From NCBI GenBank assembly GCA_964548405.1, contig CAZJPW010000001.1, positions 4,054-68,053 on the forward strand: 64,000 nt of DNA, written 5' to 3'. The translations under genes and the position numbers were made by a program. Shown here in pieces: positions 4,070 to 11,847 of the stretch (position 1 is its first letter; each line of letters opens with the position of its first letter). The DNA is from an uncultured Candidatus Saccharibacteria bacterium (GTDB taxonomy: Bacteria > Patescibacteriota > Minisyncoccia > Portnoybacterales > UBA2143). The notes beneath the pieces were generated by a model, which made no database searches, was not told the DNA's origin, and saw nothing but the letters and a program-made list of their open reading frames with translations.

Positions 4070-5383
4070 ATGAGGGACAATTGTGGAGTTTTTGGCATTC
4101 ATTCTTCTAAGGGGTGTGCTGAAAGTATTGAACGCGGCATTTTCCACTTACAGCATCGTGGCCAGGTGTATGCTGGCTTATCCGTTTTTAATGGACAGGA
4201 AATTATTTCCGAGGTAGGGAACGGATTGGTCAAGGAAGTTTTTCCGGCAAGGGATCTGGGAAACTGGGAGGGGAATTCTGGAATAGGGCATGTTAGCTTA
4301 ATGGATCCTCAGCCCCATTTAGTGGATTCCAAGATAGGCAAATTCGTTCTGGCTTTCAGCGGTAATTTGATTAACGGTCCAGAACTGCGGGAGAAATTAA
4401 AGAGCCAAAGAGAATCTTTTTCTACGTCTTATGATGTGGAGGTAATAGCCAGATTAATAGGTAAAGGAAAAGATTATATAAGCGGCATACAAGGAATGTT
4501 TCAAGAATGTAGAGGTGGCTATTCGCTGGTTTTACTAACCGATAACGGAGAAGTTTATGCAGCTAGGGATCCTTATGGGTTTAGACCGTTAATTCTGGCT
4601 AAGAATATTGACGGGTGTGCCGTAGCCTCTGAATCTCCTGCCCTAGAAGAAATAGGCATGGAAGTAGTTAGAGATGTCCGTCCAGGGGAGATTGTCCGAA
4701 TAGAAAAGAATGGTTTTTCCGTGGTTAGAGAATCACAACCGGAAAGAGCAGCCTATTGTGCTTTTGAATGGGCCTATATCGCCCGATTAGATTCTGTGAT
4801 CGAAGGTATTCCGGTCAAAAGAGCCAGGAATAATTTGGGCGGTGAGTTGGCTCAGGGAGATGAAGTGGAGGCGGACATCGTTGCTCCTATTCCTATGTCG
4901 GGCATCGGACACGCCCAGGGATATCATAGGGTGTCTGGCGTTCCTTATGATGATGTCTTTTTGTATAACAGATATTCGGATAGAAGTTATACGCCTCTTG
5001 ACCAGACAGTTAGAGATATCATAGCAAACGAAAAGCTCTCCGTTATCAAGGAATCTATTAAGGGGAAAAAGATCATTATTATCGATGATTCTATCGTCCG
5101 GGGGACCCAGATGAGAAAGCAGGTTTTCAGATTAAAGAAAGCAGGGGCTAATGAAATTCATGTCAGAGTAGCTTCACCTCCCTTAAAAGCTCCCTGCTTA
5201 TACGGGATTTCTACAACTTCCTATGAAGAGCTGGCTGCCGTCAATCATAGTACGGAGGAAATAAGGAAGATGATCGGAGCAGACACATTAAGGTTTAATA
5301 CCTTAGAAGGTTTCATCAGAGCCATCGGTCTGCCATCCGAAAGATTATGTTCATCTTGCTGGACTGGGGAGTATCCAGTTTGA
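4070..5383 (+). CDS. purF: Amidophosphoribosyltransferase (glutamine-PRPP amidotransferase)
   Basis: N-terminal nucleophile CGVFGI directly after the initiator region, PRTase motif IIIDDSIVRGTQ, and a C-terminal CxxC...GEYP cluster. Confidence 0.85.
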   Translation: MRDNCGVFGIHSSKGCAESIERGIFHLQHRGQVYAGLSVFNGQEIISEVGNGLVKEVFPARDLGNWEGNSGIGHVSLMDPQPHLVDSKIGKFVLAFSGNLINGPELREKLKSQRESFSTSYDVEVIARLIGKGKDYISGIQGMFQECRGGYSLVLLTDNGEVYAARDPYGFRPLILAKNIDGCAVASESPALEEIGMEVVRDVRPGEIVRIEKNGFSVVRESQPERAAYCAFEWAYIARLDSVIEGIPVKRARNNLGGELAQGDEVEADIVAPIPMSGIGHAQGYHRVSGVPYDDVFLYNRYSDRSYTPLDQTVRDIIANEKLSVIKESIKGKKIIIIDDSIVRGTQMRKQVFRLKKAGANEIHVRVASPPLKAPCLYGISTTSYEELAAVNHSTEEIRKMIGADTLRFNTLEGFIRAIGLPSERLCSSCWTGEYPV

Positions 5384-8002: not shown

Positions 8003-8280
8003 AGATAAAATTCAGTTTATCATTAGAAAAAGTATCTAATTTTTTAAAAAAGTATTACTTTTGGATTTTAGGATTAATTCTTTTAGTATTACTTTGTCTT
8101 AATGCCTTTGTCTATTATCAATATGTTTATTTAACTATGAATGCTAGGGTGGTGCCGGCTGATGGAAAAATAGTTATTGATCAAGAGATTATTGAGAAAG
8201 TTATGGATGTTATAGAGGAGAGGGAGGAGAATTTAACTAGAGTAAAAACAAAAGACTATTTCAACCCCTTTAATGATTGA
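7999..8280 (+). CDS. Small membrane-anchored protein, possible PilP-like or accessory pilus protein
   Basis: 93 aa with an N-terminal TM, coupled to the pilO-like gene. No recognisable motif. Confidence 0.35.
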   Translation: MKIKFSLSLEKVSNFLKKYYFWILGLILLVLLCLNAFVYYQYVYLTMNARVVPADGKIVIDQEIIEKVMDVIEEREENLTRVKTKDYFNPFND

Positions 8281-8304
8281 CTTTTAGGAAAGATTGGGTA
8301 TAAT
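8277..8304 (+). promoter_or_regulatory. Sigma70-like promoter for the tRNA-Arg/tRNA-His pair
   Basis: -35 TTGACT at 8277-8282, a 16-nt spacer, -10 TATAAT at 8299-8304. The predicted start site (about 8311-8312) is 1-2 nt before the mature tRNA 5' end at 8313. Confidence 0.6.
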
Positions 8305-8312
8305 TTTGGTAT

Positions 8313-8386
8313 GCGCCTGTAGCTCAGCCGGACAGAGCGCCACCCTTCTAAGGTGGATGTCGTAGGTTCGAATCCTACCAGGCGTA
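8313..8386 (+). tRNA. tRNA-Arg (anticodon TCT)
   Basis: Manual cloverleaf: acceptor GCGCCTG/CAGGCGT, D-arm GCTC..GAGC, anticodon stem CCACC/GGTGG with loop CTTCTAA, T-arm GTAGG TTCGAAT CCTAC, discriminator A. Confidence 0.85.
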
Positions 8387-8393
8387 CTTGTAT

Positions 8394-8470
8394 GGTGCTC
8401 GTAGCTCAATTGACAGAGCCCCAGTTTGTGGTACTGGTTGTTGCCGGTTTGAGTCCGGTCGGGCACCCCA
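8394..8470 (+). tRNA. tRNA-His (anticodon GTG) with encoded G-1 and 3' CCA
   Basis: G-1 pairs with C73. Anticodon loop TTGTGGT, T-loop TTTGAGT, and the 3' end ...CGGGCAC-C-CCA is encoded. The spurious ORFs 8284..8466(-) and 8353..8550(+) overlap these two tRNAs. Confidence 0.8.
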
Positions 8471-8476
8471 GATATT

Positions 8477-8501
8477 TAAAAAGCCCTTTGTGGGGCTTTT
8501 T
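8477..8501 (+). terminator. Rho-independent terminator after the tRNA pair
   Basis: AAAAAGCCC-tttgtg-GGGCTTTTT: a GC stem flanked by an A-tract and a T-tract. Confidence 0.6.
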
Positions 8502-8504
8502 GAG

Positions 8505-8561
8505 TTGTCAACAATTAAGTTATGTCAAGGGGTTGACAAGGTGTCAATAAAAGAATAAAAT
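8505..8561 (+). promoter_or_regulatory. Promoter of the lexA-like gene with overlapping TGTCAA/TTGACA inverted-repeat half-sites (candidate operator)
   Basis: -35 TTGACA at 8533-8538, a 17-nt spacer, -10 TAAAAT at 8556-8561. Half-sites: TTGTCAA at 8505-8511, TGTCAA at 8523-8528, and the palindrome TTGACAaggTGTCAA at 8533-8547. Confidence 0.55.
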
Positions 8562-8588
8562 GTAAGTAGTTATAAATATTTTGAAACT

Positions 8589-9335
8589 ATGCATAAAATC
8601 CAAGGAAAAATTTTAAATCTGTCTAAAAGCCATAATTTGGCTGGTTTGACTTTGCGTAAAATAGGGGAGCTTATAGGCGAGAAAGGAAGTCCTCAGAAAA
8701 TTAAGCATCACCTAAATAAATTGATAGAAAAAGGGTTATTAATAGTAAGTGCTGATGGTGAAAATATTAGTGGTTTATCTGTGGGTCTGGATAAAAAAAA
8801 TAATTTAATCTCTTTGCCTATTTTTGGATCTGCTAATTGTGGTCAGGCTTTAGAATTAGCTGAAAATAATATAGAAGATTATTTGAGAATATCAAAAAAG
8901 ATATTAGGTAATAGTTTAACTAAGAAAATTAAAGATTTATTCGTACTTAAAGCAGTTGGTCAATCTATGGATAGGGCTAATCTTAACGGAGAAAATATTG
9001 AAGACGGTGATTATTTAATTATAGACAAAGAATACAAAGTCCCACAGAATGGAGACTATGTAGTTTCTGTTATTGATGGGGCTGCTAATATTAAGAAATT
9101 TTATTCAGATGATAAAAATGAAAGAGTTGTTTTGGTTTCAGAATCAACTCAAGATATGCCGCCGATTTATGTACATAAAAAAGATTTAGTTGATTATTTA
9201 ATATGTGGTAAAGTCGTTAGTATTGTTAAAAAGATTAATGAATTAGCCTTAATGATAGATGTTTCTGCTAAAGATATTTTAAAGGATTTAGGTCCGATTT
9301 CAGGAAAAGAGGTTAAATATTACGAAAATTTATGA
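8589..9335 (+). CDS. LexA-like transcriptional repressor (wHTH plus S24 self-cleaving peptidase domain)
   Basis: C-terminal GQSM...DGDYLIID...NGDYVVSVIDGAANIKKFY...PPIYV matches the LexA/S24 Ser-Lys dyad region. The N-terminal domain is winged-helix-like. Confidence 0.75.
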   Translation: MHKIQGKILNLSKSHNLAGLTLRKIGELIGEKGSPQKIKHHLNKLIEKGLLIVSADGENISGLSVGLDKKNNLISLPIFGSANCGQALELAENNIEDYLRISKKILGNSLTKKIKDLFVLKAVGQSMDRANLNGENIEDGDYLIIDKEYKVPQNGDYVVSVIDGAANIKKFYSDDKNERVVLVSESTQDMPPIYVHKKDLVDYLICGKVVSIVKKINELALMIDVSAKDILKDLGPISGKEVKYYENL

Positions 9336-9685
9336 ACAATAAGAAAGATATTAAGTTTGGGGAGATATACCTAGTAAATTTTAATCCAAGTGTCGGTCAT
9401 GAATATCAGGGAAAGAGACCAGCGATAGTTATCGAATCTAATAATCAAATTAAGAGAACGAATCTGGTTACCGTTCTGCCATTAACTTCGAATTTGAGCG
9501 GTAAGATGTTAGATGATATATTAGTCAAAGTTAATAAAAGTAACAATCTTTATAACGATTCAATGATTAAAGTATATAGTATTATTTCATTTGATTATTC
9601 TCGTTTCATAAAAAGGATCGGTATTGTAGATAAACAAATAATGGTCAGGATTAAAAATTATTTAAAGAAGCATTTTGATCTATAA
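9332..9685 (+). CDS. MazF/PemK/Kid-family endoribonuclease toxin
   Basis: GEIYLVNFNPSVGHEYQGKRPAIVI...VTVLPLTSN closely parallels the MazF/PemK signature. Its start overlaps the lexA-like stop codon (ATGA). Confidence 0.75.
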   Translation: MNNKKDIKFGEIYLVNFNPSVGHEYQGKRPAIVIESNNQIKRTNLVTVLPLTSNLSGKMLDDILVKVNKSNNLYNDSMIKVYSIISFDYSRFIKRIGIVDKQIMVRIKNYLKKHFDL

Positions 9686-9735
9686 ATATCTATGGAATTT
9701 TTAAAGTCTTCGTCTCAGTGGAGGCTTTTTGAGTT

Positions 9736-9755
9736 TAGTAAAGTCAACTTTACTA
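9736..9755. promoter_or_regulatory. 20-nt palindrome TAGTAAAGT-ca-ACTTTACTA upstream of the HTH-Nudix gene (candidate operator)
   Basis: Perfect 9-bp inverted repeat with a 2-nt spacer, about 35 nt upstream of the ATG at 9791. Confidence 0.5.
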
Positions 9756-9790
9756 GACACGATTATTTGTGTCATATATCATAATAGCGT

Positions 9791-10498
9791 ATGAAGGAAA
9801 CAAAAAAATTACATTCTATTCAAATGGATATTCTGCGGGTTTTAATGTTTCGTCCTGAAGCCCGTTTTGCTGACTTGAATGTTCCGGAGATTTCCAATGA
9901 TCATTTTACTTTTCATGTTAAGAGATTACTTAAGCTTGGTTTAGTAGAAAAGAATGAGAAAGGAAAGTATCAATTAACTGATGCGGGTAAAGAATTTGCT
10001 AATCGTTTTGATACTGATAGTCAAGAAATAGTTTTAGAGAAACAGGCAAAGATTGGAGTTGCTATATGTTGTATTAAAAAAATAAAGGGAATCAAGAAAT
10101 ATTTAATTCAGCAGCGTTTAAAACAGCCATATTATGGATTTTATGGATTTATGACTGGTAAGGTTAGGTGGGGTGAAACAGTTGAAGAAACTGCCAAAAG
10201 GGAATTAAAGGAAGAGACTGGATTAATGGCCCAATTATCATTAGCAGGAATCAAACATAAGATGGATTATAGTAATAAAAAGAAATTATTGGAGGACAAA
10301 TATTTTTTTATCTTTAGGGGTGATAATCCCAAGGGTAAATTAATAGAATCATTTGAAGGCGGTAAGAATTTTTGGCTAACAGAGCAAGAAATTAAAAAAC
10401 TGCCTGATCTGTTTGATGGAGTAGATGAGGTAGTTAAGATGATTGGCCGTAATAAATTAGTATTTAAGGAGATAAAATATATTGTTTCTGGGTATTAA
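9791..10498 (+). CDS. Nudix hydrolase with an N-terminal winged-helix domain
   Basis: Nudix box GKVRWGETVEETAKRELKEETGL (GX5EX7REUXEEXGU). The N-terminal roughly 90 aa are wHTH-like. Confidence 0.7.
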   Translation: MKETKKLHSIQMDILRVLMFRPEARFADLNVPEISNDHFTFHVKRLLKLGLVEKNEKGKYQLTDAGKEFANRFDTDSQEIVLEKQAKIGVAICCIKKIKGIKKYLIQQRLKQPYYGFYGFMTGKVRWGETVEETAKRELKEETGLMAQLSLAGIKHKMDYSNKKKLLEDKYFFIFRGDNPKGKLIESFEGGKNFWLTEQEIKKLPDLFDGVDEVVKMIGRNKLVFKEIKYIVSGY

Positions 10499-11847
10499 TA
10501 ATAACTATTTGGATTGACGTGCCAGATTTGTTCTACGGCTTTGGTAATGTTAGGGTTGTCAAAATAGGCTGAAAGCTGTTGAGTCCAATTAGAAGCAGAA
10601 GTAGAAATAACAGGTTCAACACCATTGCCTTCAATGGGTTGATTGTCATCTCTAAGAGTTAAAGTATGAACCAAAAAGATAGAATGCTTTTCTGTTTCTG
10701 AAATTCTGTTTTCTAATTGAAAAACTCTTTCTATCGTACCCCAGCCTCGAGTGGTTTGGCCTACAACTACGCCAACATTATATCTTTTCAAAGCAGCGAC
10801 CATTAATTCAGCTGTTGATTGGCTTTGGTTGTTAATTAAGATAATTACTTTTTTATAGGGAACCAAGCTATTGAGCCAGCCCACTTTGGTTTTAAAGGGA
10901 GTTCGTTCTCCTTGATGAAGAAATTCGTAAGCATATTGGTCATAGCCGATAAAAGGACCTATAAAATAGGGTAAGATATCAATGGAGCCTCCAATATTAT
11001 TTCTTAAATCCAGAACTAAAGTATCCAGATTTTGATCAACAACCCTATTAGTCTCAGTTTGGAATTCATCAAAAGTTACAGGAGAGAATACTTTTAAATG
11101 AATATGAAAAATATTTGGTTCAATTATTTTAGTATAAATAGTTGGTTCTGCTCCGGTCTGGTCGTATCTTTGTTTTTTAGCTTCGTCTGATAAAACTTGG
11201 TGGGCTGATTCAACTTTTTTTAATTCTTGTTTAGCTTCTTCTTTTTCGGGTTCTGGAGTGCTGGGGGCTTCAATCTTTTCTTCTAATTGAACTGTTTTTT
11301 CTTGGTAAACTTCTTCAACTTTTTCTGGAGTGGCGTTTTTAGCTACGCCTAAATCCTGGTAAAGATCTTTATCTGGATTAATATTCTGAACTCTGTTTTT
11401 TAAAGCTTGTTCATCCTGGGTTGTATAAAGGCCGCTGCGGCCCATTGGTTGGAGGTTTTGCAAGACAATCGTAGCTAATTTAGTTGTAAATTCTTGTTTT
11501 TGTTCATCATTTAAATCGGTTAATGTTTTTTCTATCATTGTTTCCAATCCTTGTTTGTCATTTGGTTCAATAGGATGAGAACCACCAATTAGTTTTTCTG
11601 TGCCTAATTGAAAAAGATTGTTTAATTCTGCTTGAGATAAAGTGTCCCAATAATTTTCTTGGATTTTATCATAGATTTCTAAAAGAAAAGCAGTGTATAT
11701 GTTTTTTTCTTCGTTTTCGGTTATTGGCTGAGTTATTATATTTTTCAAAGAATAAAAGTATCCACCCGCAGCGCCAATAACCAAAATTACTATTATAGCT
11801 ATGAGGCCAGCTGAATAAAGTAGATATTTTTTGTACTTCTTTTTCAT
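10495..11847 (-). CDS. S41-family (C-terminal processing/tail-specific) peptidase with an N-terminal TM and an internal degenerate J-domain-like segment
   Basis: S41 catalytic region NQSQSTAELMVAALK...GQTTRGWG. The segment DLYQDLGVAKNATPEKVEEVY...AHQVLSDEAKKQRYDQTG parallels a DnaJ J-domain but the HPD tripeptide is replaced. Confidence 0.65.
   Translation of the reverse strand: MKKKYKKYLLYSAGLIAIIVILVIGAAGGYFYSLKNIITQPITENEEKNIYTAFLLEIYDKIQENYWDTLSQAELNNLFQLGTEKLIGGSHPIEPNDKQGLETMIEKTLTDLNDEQKQEFTTKLATIVLQNLQPMGRSGLYTTQDEQALKNRVQNINPDKDLYQDLGVAKNATPEKVEEVYQEKTVQLEEKIEAPSTPEPEKEEAKQELKKVESAHQVLSDEAKKQRYDQTGAEPTIYTKIIEPNIFHIHLKVFSPVTFDEFQTETNRVVDQNLDTLVLDLRNNIGGSIDILPYFIGPFIGYDQYAYEFLHQGERTPFKTKVGWLNSLVPYKKVIILINNQSQSTAELMVAALKRYNVGVVVGQTTRGWGTIERVFQLENRISETEKHSIFLVHTLTLRDDNQPIEGNGVEPVISTSASNWTQQLSAYFDNPNITKAVEQIWHVNPNSYY

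Follow-up and report, generated by a model that had tools for sequence, protein, structure and literature searches.

What holds a MazF-family toxin in check when the gene in front of it encodes, in place of a small antitoxin, a full-length LexA-type repressor? The question is raised by two adjacent genes in a 64-kb stretch of contig CAZJPW010000001.1 from an uncultured Candidatus Saccharibacteria bacterium (hereafter the window; positions without a locus number are window coordinates). The upstream gene (8589..9335, plus strand) encodes a LexA-type repressor/autoprotease of 248 amino acids (aa) with a C-terminal tail, assigned with Pfam, NCBIfam, AlphaFold2 (AF2) and Foldseek, and the downstream gene (9332..9685, plus strand) encodes a 117-aa toxin of the MazF/PemK family with an isoelectric point (pI) of 9.8, recognised by the PemK_toxin model of Pfam. 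Comparison with related loci leads us to consider it likely that the two genes form a type II toxin–antitoxin (TA) pair, in which a chimera of a LexA-type repressor and a MazF-neutralising tail acts as the antitoxin and from which the toxin may be released upon cleavage of the repressor.

The stop codon of the LexA-like gene and the start codon of mazF overlap by 4 nucleotides (nt) in an ATGA at 9332–9335, and the same overlap is kept at 27 of 36 related loci, with the window counted in addition. Upstream lies a promoter/operator region in which a near-consensus promoter is combined with repeated hexamers (8505..8561, plus strand), and a terminator-like hairpin with a T run (9703..9728, plus strand) follows the toxin gene and closes the two-gene operon. 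Given its own promoter-like site, the ATGA overlap and the hairpin after MazF, the pair appears to be a self-contained bicistronic operon. It is flanked by genes for tRNA-Arg and tRNA-His on one side and by a gene for a winged helix-turn-helix (wHTH)–NUDIX protein with its own promoter on the other. The wider setting is a core chromosomal region, with pilus genes to one side and a ribosomal-protein cluster to the other.

No separate antitoxin gene was found within or around this operon. The list of open reading frames (ORFs) of the window contains no MazE-like ORF of 25 aa or longer on either side of the pair, and clustering of the small flanking ORFs of 33 related loci yielded no family common to more than three of the 33, so that a separate MazE gene was rejected as a candidate. 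An RNA antitoxin or riboregulator was rejected as well, because an Rfam scan of positions 8200–9900 at a permissive E-value matched only the two tRNAs. A tRNA-linked island was likewise considered and rejected, a tRNA being nearby in only a few of the related loci. The original prediction for this locus had described both the overlap of the LexA-like stop codon with the ATG of a MazF/PemK gene and the lack of a small MazE/PemI-like ORF on either side, and both descriptions hold.

The LexA-like protein matches the Pfam family Peptidase_S24 (5.9e-17, residues 77–210) and the NCBIfam lexA model TIGR00498 (2.5e-22, residues 21–216), the latter with a score of 79.5 bits, below the equivalog cut-off of 110.95. 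The motifs GQSM (with Ser126), DGDYLIID and PPIYV, from which a LexA/S24 C-terminal domain had originally been predicted, are all present, and the N-terminal wHTH DNA-binding domain of that prediction (approximately residues 1–70; 8589..8798, plus strand) is corroborated by the helices and strands of the AF2 model, by Foldseek and by conservation. The model has a mean predicted local distance difference test (pLDDT) score of 76 and consists of helices at residues 3–14, 22–29 and 35–47, followed by beta strands and then by a beta-rich domain. Foldseek places it closest to LexA structures of full length from E. coli (1jhh and 3jso) and T. maritima (3k2z), with about 225 columns aligned. The segment SPQKIKHH (S34–H41) is invariant among the relatives and presumably corresponds to the recognition helix of LexA, as judged from the E. 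coli sequence.

The residues associated with self-cleavage are strictly conserved. Gly85 is found in 80 of 80 relatives and is preceded by Cys in 71 and by Ala in nine of them, which places the predicted autocleavage site at Cys84–Gly85 (TGT GGT; 8838..8843, plus strand), a Cys–Gly site as in UmuD. The S24 Ser/Lys dyad, Ser126 (TCT; 8964..8966, plus strand) and Lys169 (AAG; 9093..9095, plus strand), is conserved in 80/80 relatives. With Gly85, Ser126 and Lys169 invariant and residue 84 restricted to Cys or Ala, the self-cleavage apparatus appears to be intact. The protein thus combines the defining features of LexA, namely, a wHTH N-terminal domain and an S24 C-terminal domain with the Ser/Lys dyad and the Ala(Cys)–Gly bond, and its relatives are named 'S24 family peptidase' in NCBI records and LexA in JGI. 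Pfam searches gave no match to Panacea (DUF4065), AbrB or RHH in this protein, and PADLOC matched neither it nor MazF.

The identity of the downstream gene as a member of the MazF/PemK family, as originally proposed, is confirmed by a match over the full length of PemK_toxin (PF02452; 8e-23, 81.2 bits against a cut-off of 23.1). The toxin assignment would have been weakened by the loss of the MazF catalytic residues, and both are kept: Arg29 (9416–9418, plus strand) and Thr52 (9485–9487, plus strand) align with R29 and T52 of E. coli MazF and with R25 and T48 of the B. subtilis protein, and are present in all intact homologues. The closest solved chains by sequence are M. tuberculosis MazF9 and PemK/EndoA. 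The scores fall far below the cut-offs of the named MazF/ChpB equivalogs (32.6 bits against 120 for the best NCBIfam match, NF007386), suggesting that the window protein represents a distinct MazF subfamily.

The feature that appears to link the two proteins is found at the very end of the repressor. Alignments with LexA models and structures all end at residue 215/216, leaving 33 extra residues beyond the LexA fold (residues 216–248, INELALMIDVSAKDILKDLGPISGKEVKYYENL; 9234..9332, plus strand), and comparative evidence points to this tail as the MazF-neutralising element. Its consensus, D-ILKDLGPISKEE--YYENL, is conserved across a large family in Patescibacteria, and searches of Pfam and of solved structures gave no match to it. 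In the AF2 model, the tail forms a helix (residues 218–234), a turn and a second helix (residues 239–247) with pLDDT values of 65–69, as might be expected of a segment that becomes ordered only on binding its partner. The charges of the two also contrast, the tail being acidic (pI 4.6) and MazF basic (pI 9.8).

A scan of one genome per species gave 80 loci with LexA-like relatives, 78 of which, including the window, could be evaluated. The proteins fall into two groups, one of approximately 245–253 aa with a YYxNL-type tail and the other of 205–229 aa without it. MazF is encoded downstream at 35 of the tail-bearing loci and is missing from one, whereas none of the 42 tail-less loci has MazF (Fisher p = 2e-21 over the 78 loci, a statistic that ignores phylogeny). 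The combination of LexA, tail and MazF is thus present at 35/36 evaluable tail-bearing loci, counting the window locus and the species-representative genomes, and, clustered at 90% identity, the proteins that match over the full length form at least 120 clusters. The LexA-like/MazF pair is therefore widespread in Patescibacteria and not rare, contrary to the initial view of it as an uncommon arrangement.

Loci at which the toxin is being lost are also informative about the tail. MazF is visibly decaying at L013, L032 and L034, and a clade of four members (L023, L027, L029 and L031) that is nested in the tail-plus-MazF group is without MazF. Members of this clade keep the proximal half of the tail and have a lysine-rich end in place of the distal EE--YYxNL half, which would look like the decay of the tail after loss of the toxin. 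At the conserved positions of the tail, synonymous codons are diverse (six for Leu, five for Ser, four for Gly and four for Pro), indicating that selection acts on the peptide and not on an RNA signal. Conservation of the tail as a nucleotide signal for MazF translation was rejected for the same reason. In the nested clade, where the LexA-like genes end at approximately 4391–4750 of their loci, the downstream gene encodes a KilA-N, MscS-like (by eye), RhuM or Bro-N protein, which suggests cassettes composed of a LexA-like repressor plus one variable effector.

The same tail is also found on proteins other than LexA. The first example was provided by locus L081, where the gene upstream of a MazF (P0228; 54% identical to that of the window and from a larger genome) encodes a 280-aa protein with Xre-HTH and Panacea domains, which ends in ...MWQDAAGADTVKALGKMSEKEFEYYEKL, the same tail. 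Selection of metagenome contigs by MazF similarity alone gave 80 loci, 76 with an evaluable upstream ORF, and at all 76 this ORF ends in the tail. The scaffold that carries it is Xre plus Panacea at 41 of these loci, LexA-like/S24 at 29 and a small ORF of 85–95 codons with a Phd/YefM-like N-terminus at five, and is truncated by the end of the contig at one; since P0228 was the ranking reference, these counts lean toward Panacea partners. Two of the three small scaffolds that were scanned gave matches to PhdYeFM of Pfam (5.6e-5 and 2.3e-3), both below the threshold.

The association holds in the reverse direction as well. A hidden Markov model (HMM) of the tail, trained only on LexA-borne tails, matched 128 ORFs in the approximately 1.1 Mb that had been collected; of these ORFs, 120 end directly upstream of MazF. 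Five MazF matches without a tail neighbour are explained by contig ends, fragments or a divergent tail. Distant MazFs on viral contigs have no adjoining match to the tail HMM, and neither a member of the window MazF clade nor the tail was found in IMG/VR. An origin of the unit from phages was rejected, because the MazFs in IMG/VR are all distant ones and its LexA-like relatives, three in number, have no tail.

In the MazF tree, the LexA-like, Xre-plus-Panacea and Phd/YefM-like scaffolds are interleaved, and subtypes of the tail, such as MWQDAAG or FIQTGA-DVH, go with the MazF subclade irrespective of the scaffold. Tail and MazF distances are correlated, both over all pairs (Mantel r = 0.66) and over cross-scaffold pairs only (r = 0.37; p = 0.0005 each). 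The interleaving, the tracking of MazF by tail subtype and the Mantel correlations suggest that the tail and MazF behave as one unit which has been repeatedly grafted onto different DNA-binding or sensor proteins. Together with the co-occurrence with MazF, the presence on three scaffolds and the subtype tracking make a MazF-neutralising role the most likely one, and we regard the tail as highly probably the element that binds and neutralises MazF. The original prediction had raised the possibility that the LexA-like protein itself neutralises the toxin; this part is strongly supported by the comparative data, and is refined here to the tail of about 33 residues, which the prediction had missed. 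Its other possibility, a toxin set free when the repressor cleaves itself, is compatible with this one.

How, then, is the operon controlled? The promoter consists of a −35 element, TTGACA (8533–8538), a 17-nt spacer and a −10 element, TAAAAT (8556–8561), with a promoter score of 11/12, in agreement with the near-consensus promoter first noted here; the autoregulatory appearance of its layout was also rightly recognised. Of the three half-sites and the palindrome that had been reported, the palindrome stands, but the count is four: TGTCAA at 8506–8511, 8523–8528 and 8542–8547, and TTGACA at 8533. Four such hexamers within 42 bp is far beyond chance, given that the whole window holds only 34. 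The perfect 6-3-6 palindrome, TTGACAaggTGTCAA, at 8533–8547 occurs nowhere else in the window.

In a set of 81 related loci, the 120 nt that precede a LexA-like gene, whether or not it encodes a tail, are enriched 39-fold in TGTCAA in the orientation of the gene, and the −35-like TTGACA is enriched 23-fold. The commonest arrangement is a direct repeat of TGTCAA with 9-bp spacing (19 cases), whereas inverted TTGACA-N2/3-TGTCAA over the −35 element is limited to six loci, one of them the window (N2 in four, N3 in two). The TTGACA-N3-TGTCAA palindrome was accordingly rejected as the operator of the family, because its spacer varies and most loci are without it. The conserved feature of the family appears instead to be the TGTCAA hexamer, often in 9-bp direct repeats. 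In the 4-kb flanks of the loci and in the 64-kb window, TGTCAA clusters are found almost only at the own or divergent promoters of LexA-like genes. The invariant recognition helix combined with the conserved hexamer argues that TGTCAA is the predicted recognition element of the LexA-like family and that the LexA-like genes are autoregulated. The canonical SOS box of the Gram-positive type, GAAC-N4-GTTC, was not found in the window.

The tail-less LexA-like relatives (L042–L080; 205–229 aa) share the same SPQK(I/V)KHH helix and the same TGTCAA repeats. They come from metagenome-assembled genomes labelled as Pyrinomonadaceae, Chitinophagaceae, Nitrospirales and Patescibacteria, and from three IMG/VR viral contigs (L182–L184). 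A subgroup centred, by record title, on Yanofskybacteria carries another short basic extension (…KPKTxWSKFKKFVY).

The upstream regions contain further conserved features. A DnaA-box-like motif, TTATCCAC(A), which the loci contain 64 times in their total of 580 kb, is present in 25 of the 81 upstream regions and looks like a second conserved cis-element. It often sits between the −10 element and the start codon, and a degenerate copy is found in the window near 8570–8580. The motif lies within 120 nt upstream of the LexA-like start at L008, L009, L013, L037, L001, L015, L027 and L029, and also at L031, L046, L056, L059, L066, L073, L078, L080 and others. At L046, L056, L059 and L066, a conserved gene for a protein of approximately 90 aa (MDKQV(I/V)I(K/R)GF...) on the minus strand is divergent from the LexA-like promoter; the promoter region between the two genes contains four TGTCAA/TTGACA hexamers, and the product may be a co-regulated partner. 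At L009, L022 and L037, a YegP/DUF1508-like ORF of approximately 60 aa (a resemblance judged by eye) is located on the minus strand, divergent upstream of the LexA-like gene, and represents the only family of small flanking ORFs common to more than two loci.

In the TA mechanism that we propose, the LexA-like dimer would repress the operon by binding the TGTCAA hexamers interspersed in its own promoter, and the two tails of each dimer would lie in the grooves with which MazF dimers bind RNA, so that a complex of the MazF2–antitoxin2–MazF2 type forms as in MazEF. Filaments of RecA on single-stranded DNA would stimulate self-cleavage at Cys84–Gly85, so that the DNA-binding domain is detached and degrons are exposed. 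The fragment consisting of the S24 domain and the tail would then be degraded and MazF freed. DNA damage, or the replication of phage or mobile DNA, would thereby be coupled to RNA cleavage and growth arrest. Self-cleavage by a Ser/Lys dyad, stimulated by RecA on single-stranded DNA, is the textbook signal and chemistry of the LexA family. That autocleavage is the physiological trigger of toxin release is, by analogy, a tentative proposal to which we give somewhat less than an even chance. Equally tentative is the broader scheme, in which RecA-stimulated self-cleavage of the antitoxin frees MazF, the tail and MazF constitute a portable cassette for any sensor scaffold, and the stand-alone tails described below are anti-toxin decoys.

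Several observations weigh against this proposal in whole or in part. The statistics of tail–MazF co-occurrence ignore shared ancestry. At L003, the tail is intact though a Bro-N (DinD-like) gene replaces MazF (LexA-like/Bro-N site L003:4757-5563), the single exception among the 36 tail-bearing loci. Free-standing ORFs of 45–60 aa that comprise little more than the tail are found with no MazF next to them (proteins P0241–P0245; ORFs at L088:360-515, L089:1947-2129, L090:240-389, L091:936-1085 and L094:780-917), adjoining radical-SAM genes or following pairs of Xre-Panacea (PanA) and RelE-like genes. Since these orphan tails occur without MazF, the tail could have a role beyond MazF binding; the orphans may be remnants, trans-acting anti-MazF peptides or the sign of a broader function. 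Among database searches for the tail itself, a word-index search with the tail alignment (A3) found no more than five proteins, all short, and an exhaustive representative search with the 37-aa tail of the window gave three matches and was too insensitive. Furthermore, there is no recA gene within the window. Finally, cleavage at residue 84 would leave the tail on the S24 domain, and the toxin would be set free only once the C-terminal fragment is degraded. LexA-like proteins become unstable only when they have cleaved themselves, through degrons next to the cleavage site, and in the case of HdiR, the C-terminal fragment carries an N-degron that autocleavage exposes (PMC5742171).

The last point bears directly on one alternative, namely, that the LexA-like part provides only DNA binding and dimerisation to a tail-mediated TA system that has no DNA-damage trigger. 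This would account for the occurrence of the same tail-plus-MazF unit with protease-free scaffolds, from which it follows that autocleavage is not intrinsically required, and is favoured by the retention of the tail on the S24 domain after cleavage at residue 84. We nevertheless consider it unlikely, because the invariance of G85, S126 and K169 in all 80 relatives, every tail-bearing one included, and the restriction of the residue before the scissile bond to Cys or Ala suggest that self-cleavage is under selection. Moreover, cleavage-exposed degrons have been documented on both fragments of LexA-like proteins (PMC5742171).

A second alternative assigns all control to transcription: the LexA-like protein would repress a solitary MazF effector gene in the manner of an SOS repressor, and the tail would serve oligomerisation, act as a degron or bind another partner. 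The dense packing of the promoter with the TGTCAA hexamers of the family is as expected under such control, as are the varied single 'effector' genes (Bro-N, KilA-N, RhuM and methyltransferases) that follow the tail-less relatives and the stand-alone tail ORFs away from MazF. It is the three-scaffold result that makes this explanation improbable: the tail is present at 76/76 evaluable MazF-selected loci, where it is carried by three unrelated scaffolds including a small antitoxin of the Phd/YefM type, and its subtype tracks the MazF subclade across scaffolds. In addition, as judged from the ATGA overlap, MazF would be translated whenever the autoregulated repressor is translated, and neutralisation at the protein level would therefore be needed. 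It is most improbable that the locus is not a TA system at all and that MazF in this clade is an RNase with a benign or housekeeping function, recruited by the tail as a co-repressor or RNA-processing partner, for although the low NCBIfam MazF equivalog score (32.6 against 120) marks a distinct subfamily and the setting between pilus genes and a ribosomal-protein cluster is core chromosomal, Arg29, Thr52 and the PemK fold are conserved, the partners belong to the recognised antitoxin families Panacea and Phd/YefM, and MazF is decayed or replaced at L003, L013, L032 and L034, as is typical of TA loci.

The proposed TA operon resembles the MazE–MazF and PemI–PemK systems (Kis–Kid, EndoAI–EndoA) in its PemK-fold toxin with the Arg/Thr pair, in the upstream position and overlap of the antitoxin gene, in an antitoxin that is a DNA-binding dimer and ends in an acidic stretch, the proposed contact with the toxin, and in its autoregulated-looking promoter. 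Unlike these systems, it has no small MazE of the AbrB or RHH type, the place of which is taken by a full LexA-type repressor with an apparently intact S24 autoprotease, and its tail is without detectable similarity to a Pfam family or a solved structure. As in MazE-type antitoxins, a C-terminal segment appears to be dedicated to the toxin, comparative genomics indicating that the tail co-occurs and is co-transferred with MazF.

A second parallel is provided by Panacea antitoxins, in which exchangeable terminal elements effect neutralisation, for instance, Panacea combined with Phd-C against Doc, a mode termed 'linear neutralisation' (PMC10440598); pairs of PanA and PemK have already been described (PMC8832971). 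As in PanA, a short exchangeable terminal element would neutralise the toxin and the large domain would be the proposed sensor, and the same tail and MazF are indeed found on Xre-plus-Panacea scaffolds. Unlike PanA, the window scaffold has no Panacea domain and is a LexA-type self-cleaving repressor. In keeping with linear neutralisation as defined by NetFlax, the terminal element is exchangeable among three scaffolds and tracks the toxin (cross-scaffold r = 0.37, p = 0.0005). Neither LexA nor S24 is mentioned in PMC10440598 or PMC8832971.

The locus is also comparable to toxin modules repressed by LexA, such as yafNO, tisB-istR and symE of E. coli and higBA of Caulobacter, where an SOS-type repressor is likewise placed over a toxin and DNA damage is the expected inducer. 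In these modules, however, LexA acts only on transcription and a separate protein or RNA is the antitoxin, whereas here the repressor itself is predicted to hold the toxin. Other LexA-like repressors keep lethal genes silent, among them AlpR, which controls alpBCDE in P. aeruginosa, and the CI-type repressors of phages. With these, and with ImmA/IrrE–Xre, the proposed mechanism would share the damage-triggered proteolytic inactivation of a repressor that unleashes a growth-arresting or lethal function, but those systems work by de-repression only, have no fused toxin-neutralising peptide and do not hold the killer post-translationally. Work based on TADB has predicted S24-containing 'antitoxins' adjoining HipA (PMC7826846). 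Overall, the operon appears to work like MazEF and the modular PanA antitoxins while falling outside the MazE, PanA and NCBIfam-defined LexA families. Searches of full-text literature found no description of a LexA-type autoprotease with a toxin-neutralising tail, although work on the SOS network of Patescibacteria may mention one, and no description of the MazF–tail cassette.

The immediate surroundings of the operon deserve a brief description. Directly after the tRNA-His gene, a hairpin (AAAGCCC-TTTGTG-GGGCTTT; 8480–8499) resembles an intrinsic terminator and would insulate the promoter of the operon; it was not called by the consensus terminator scan, as its T run lies partly inside the stem. 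Immediately 3′ of the operon and outside it, a 235-aa winged-HTH and NUDIX fusion protein is encoded at 9791–10498 (plus strand), with its own promoter-like site at 9754–9782 and weak PADLOC matches to PDC-S07 and to winged helices of the AbiEi type. Two genes downstream, at 10495–11847 (minus strand), lies a gene for a 450-aa peptidase of family S41 (the tail-specific protease family), which has a weak DnaJ-like match at its N-terminus; synteny of this gene is kept in the closest contigs (L084–L087).

The activation of type II TA systems is a long-standing question, and large antitoxin domains such as Panacea have been proposed by the NetFlax authors to be sensors of cues (PMC10440598). The presence of the same neutralising tail and toxin on a LexA-type scaffold, the signal of which is known, makes the idea of a sensor-domain antitoxin directly testable. 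What is new here is a portable MazF-associated tail on a self-cleaving LexA-type repressor, and because this tail always accompanies one MazF clade, the repressor is very probably the antitoxin. If this holds true, the locus would represent a natural antitoxin whose lability stems from signal-gated autoproteolysis and not from constitutive turnover by Lon or Clp, and the tail would be an inhibitor of one MazF clade in the form of a small transferable peptide, and a possible tool. By linking the sensing of DNA damage directly to toxin release, the LexA-type repressor may then constitute, in many Patescibacteria, a protein-level sensor of SOS conditions (or of phage DNA) wired directly to a toxin, which would provide these genome-reduced bacteria with an effector of a DNA-damage or infection checkpoint.

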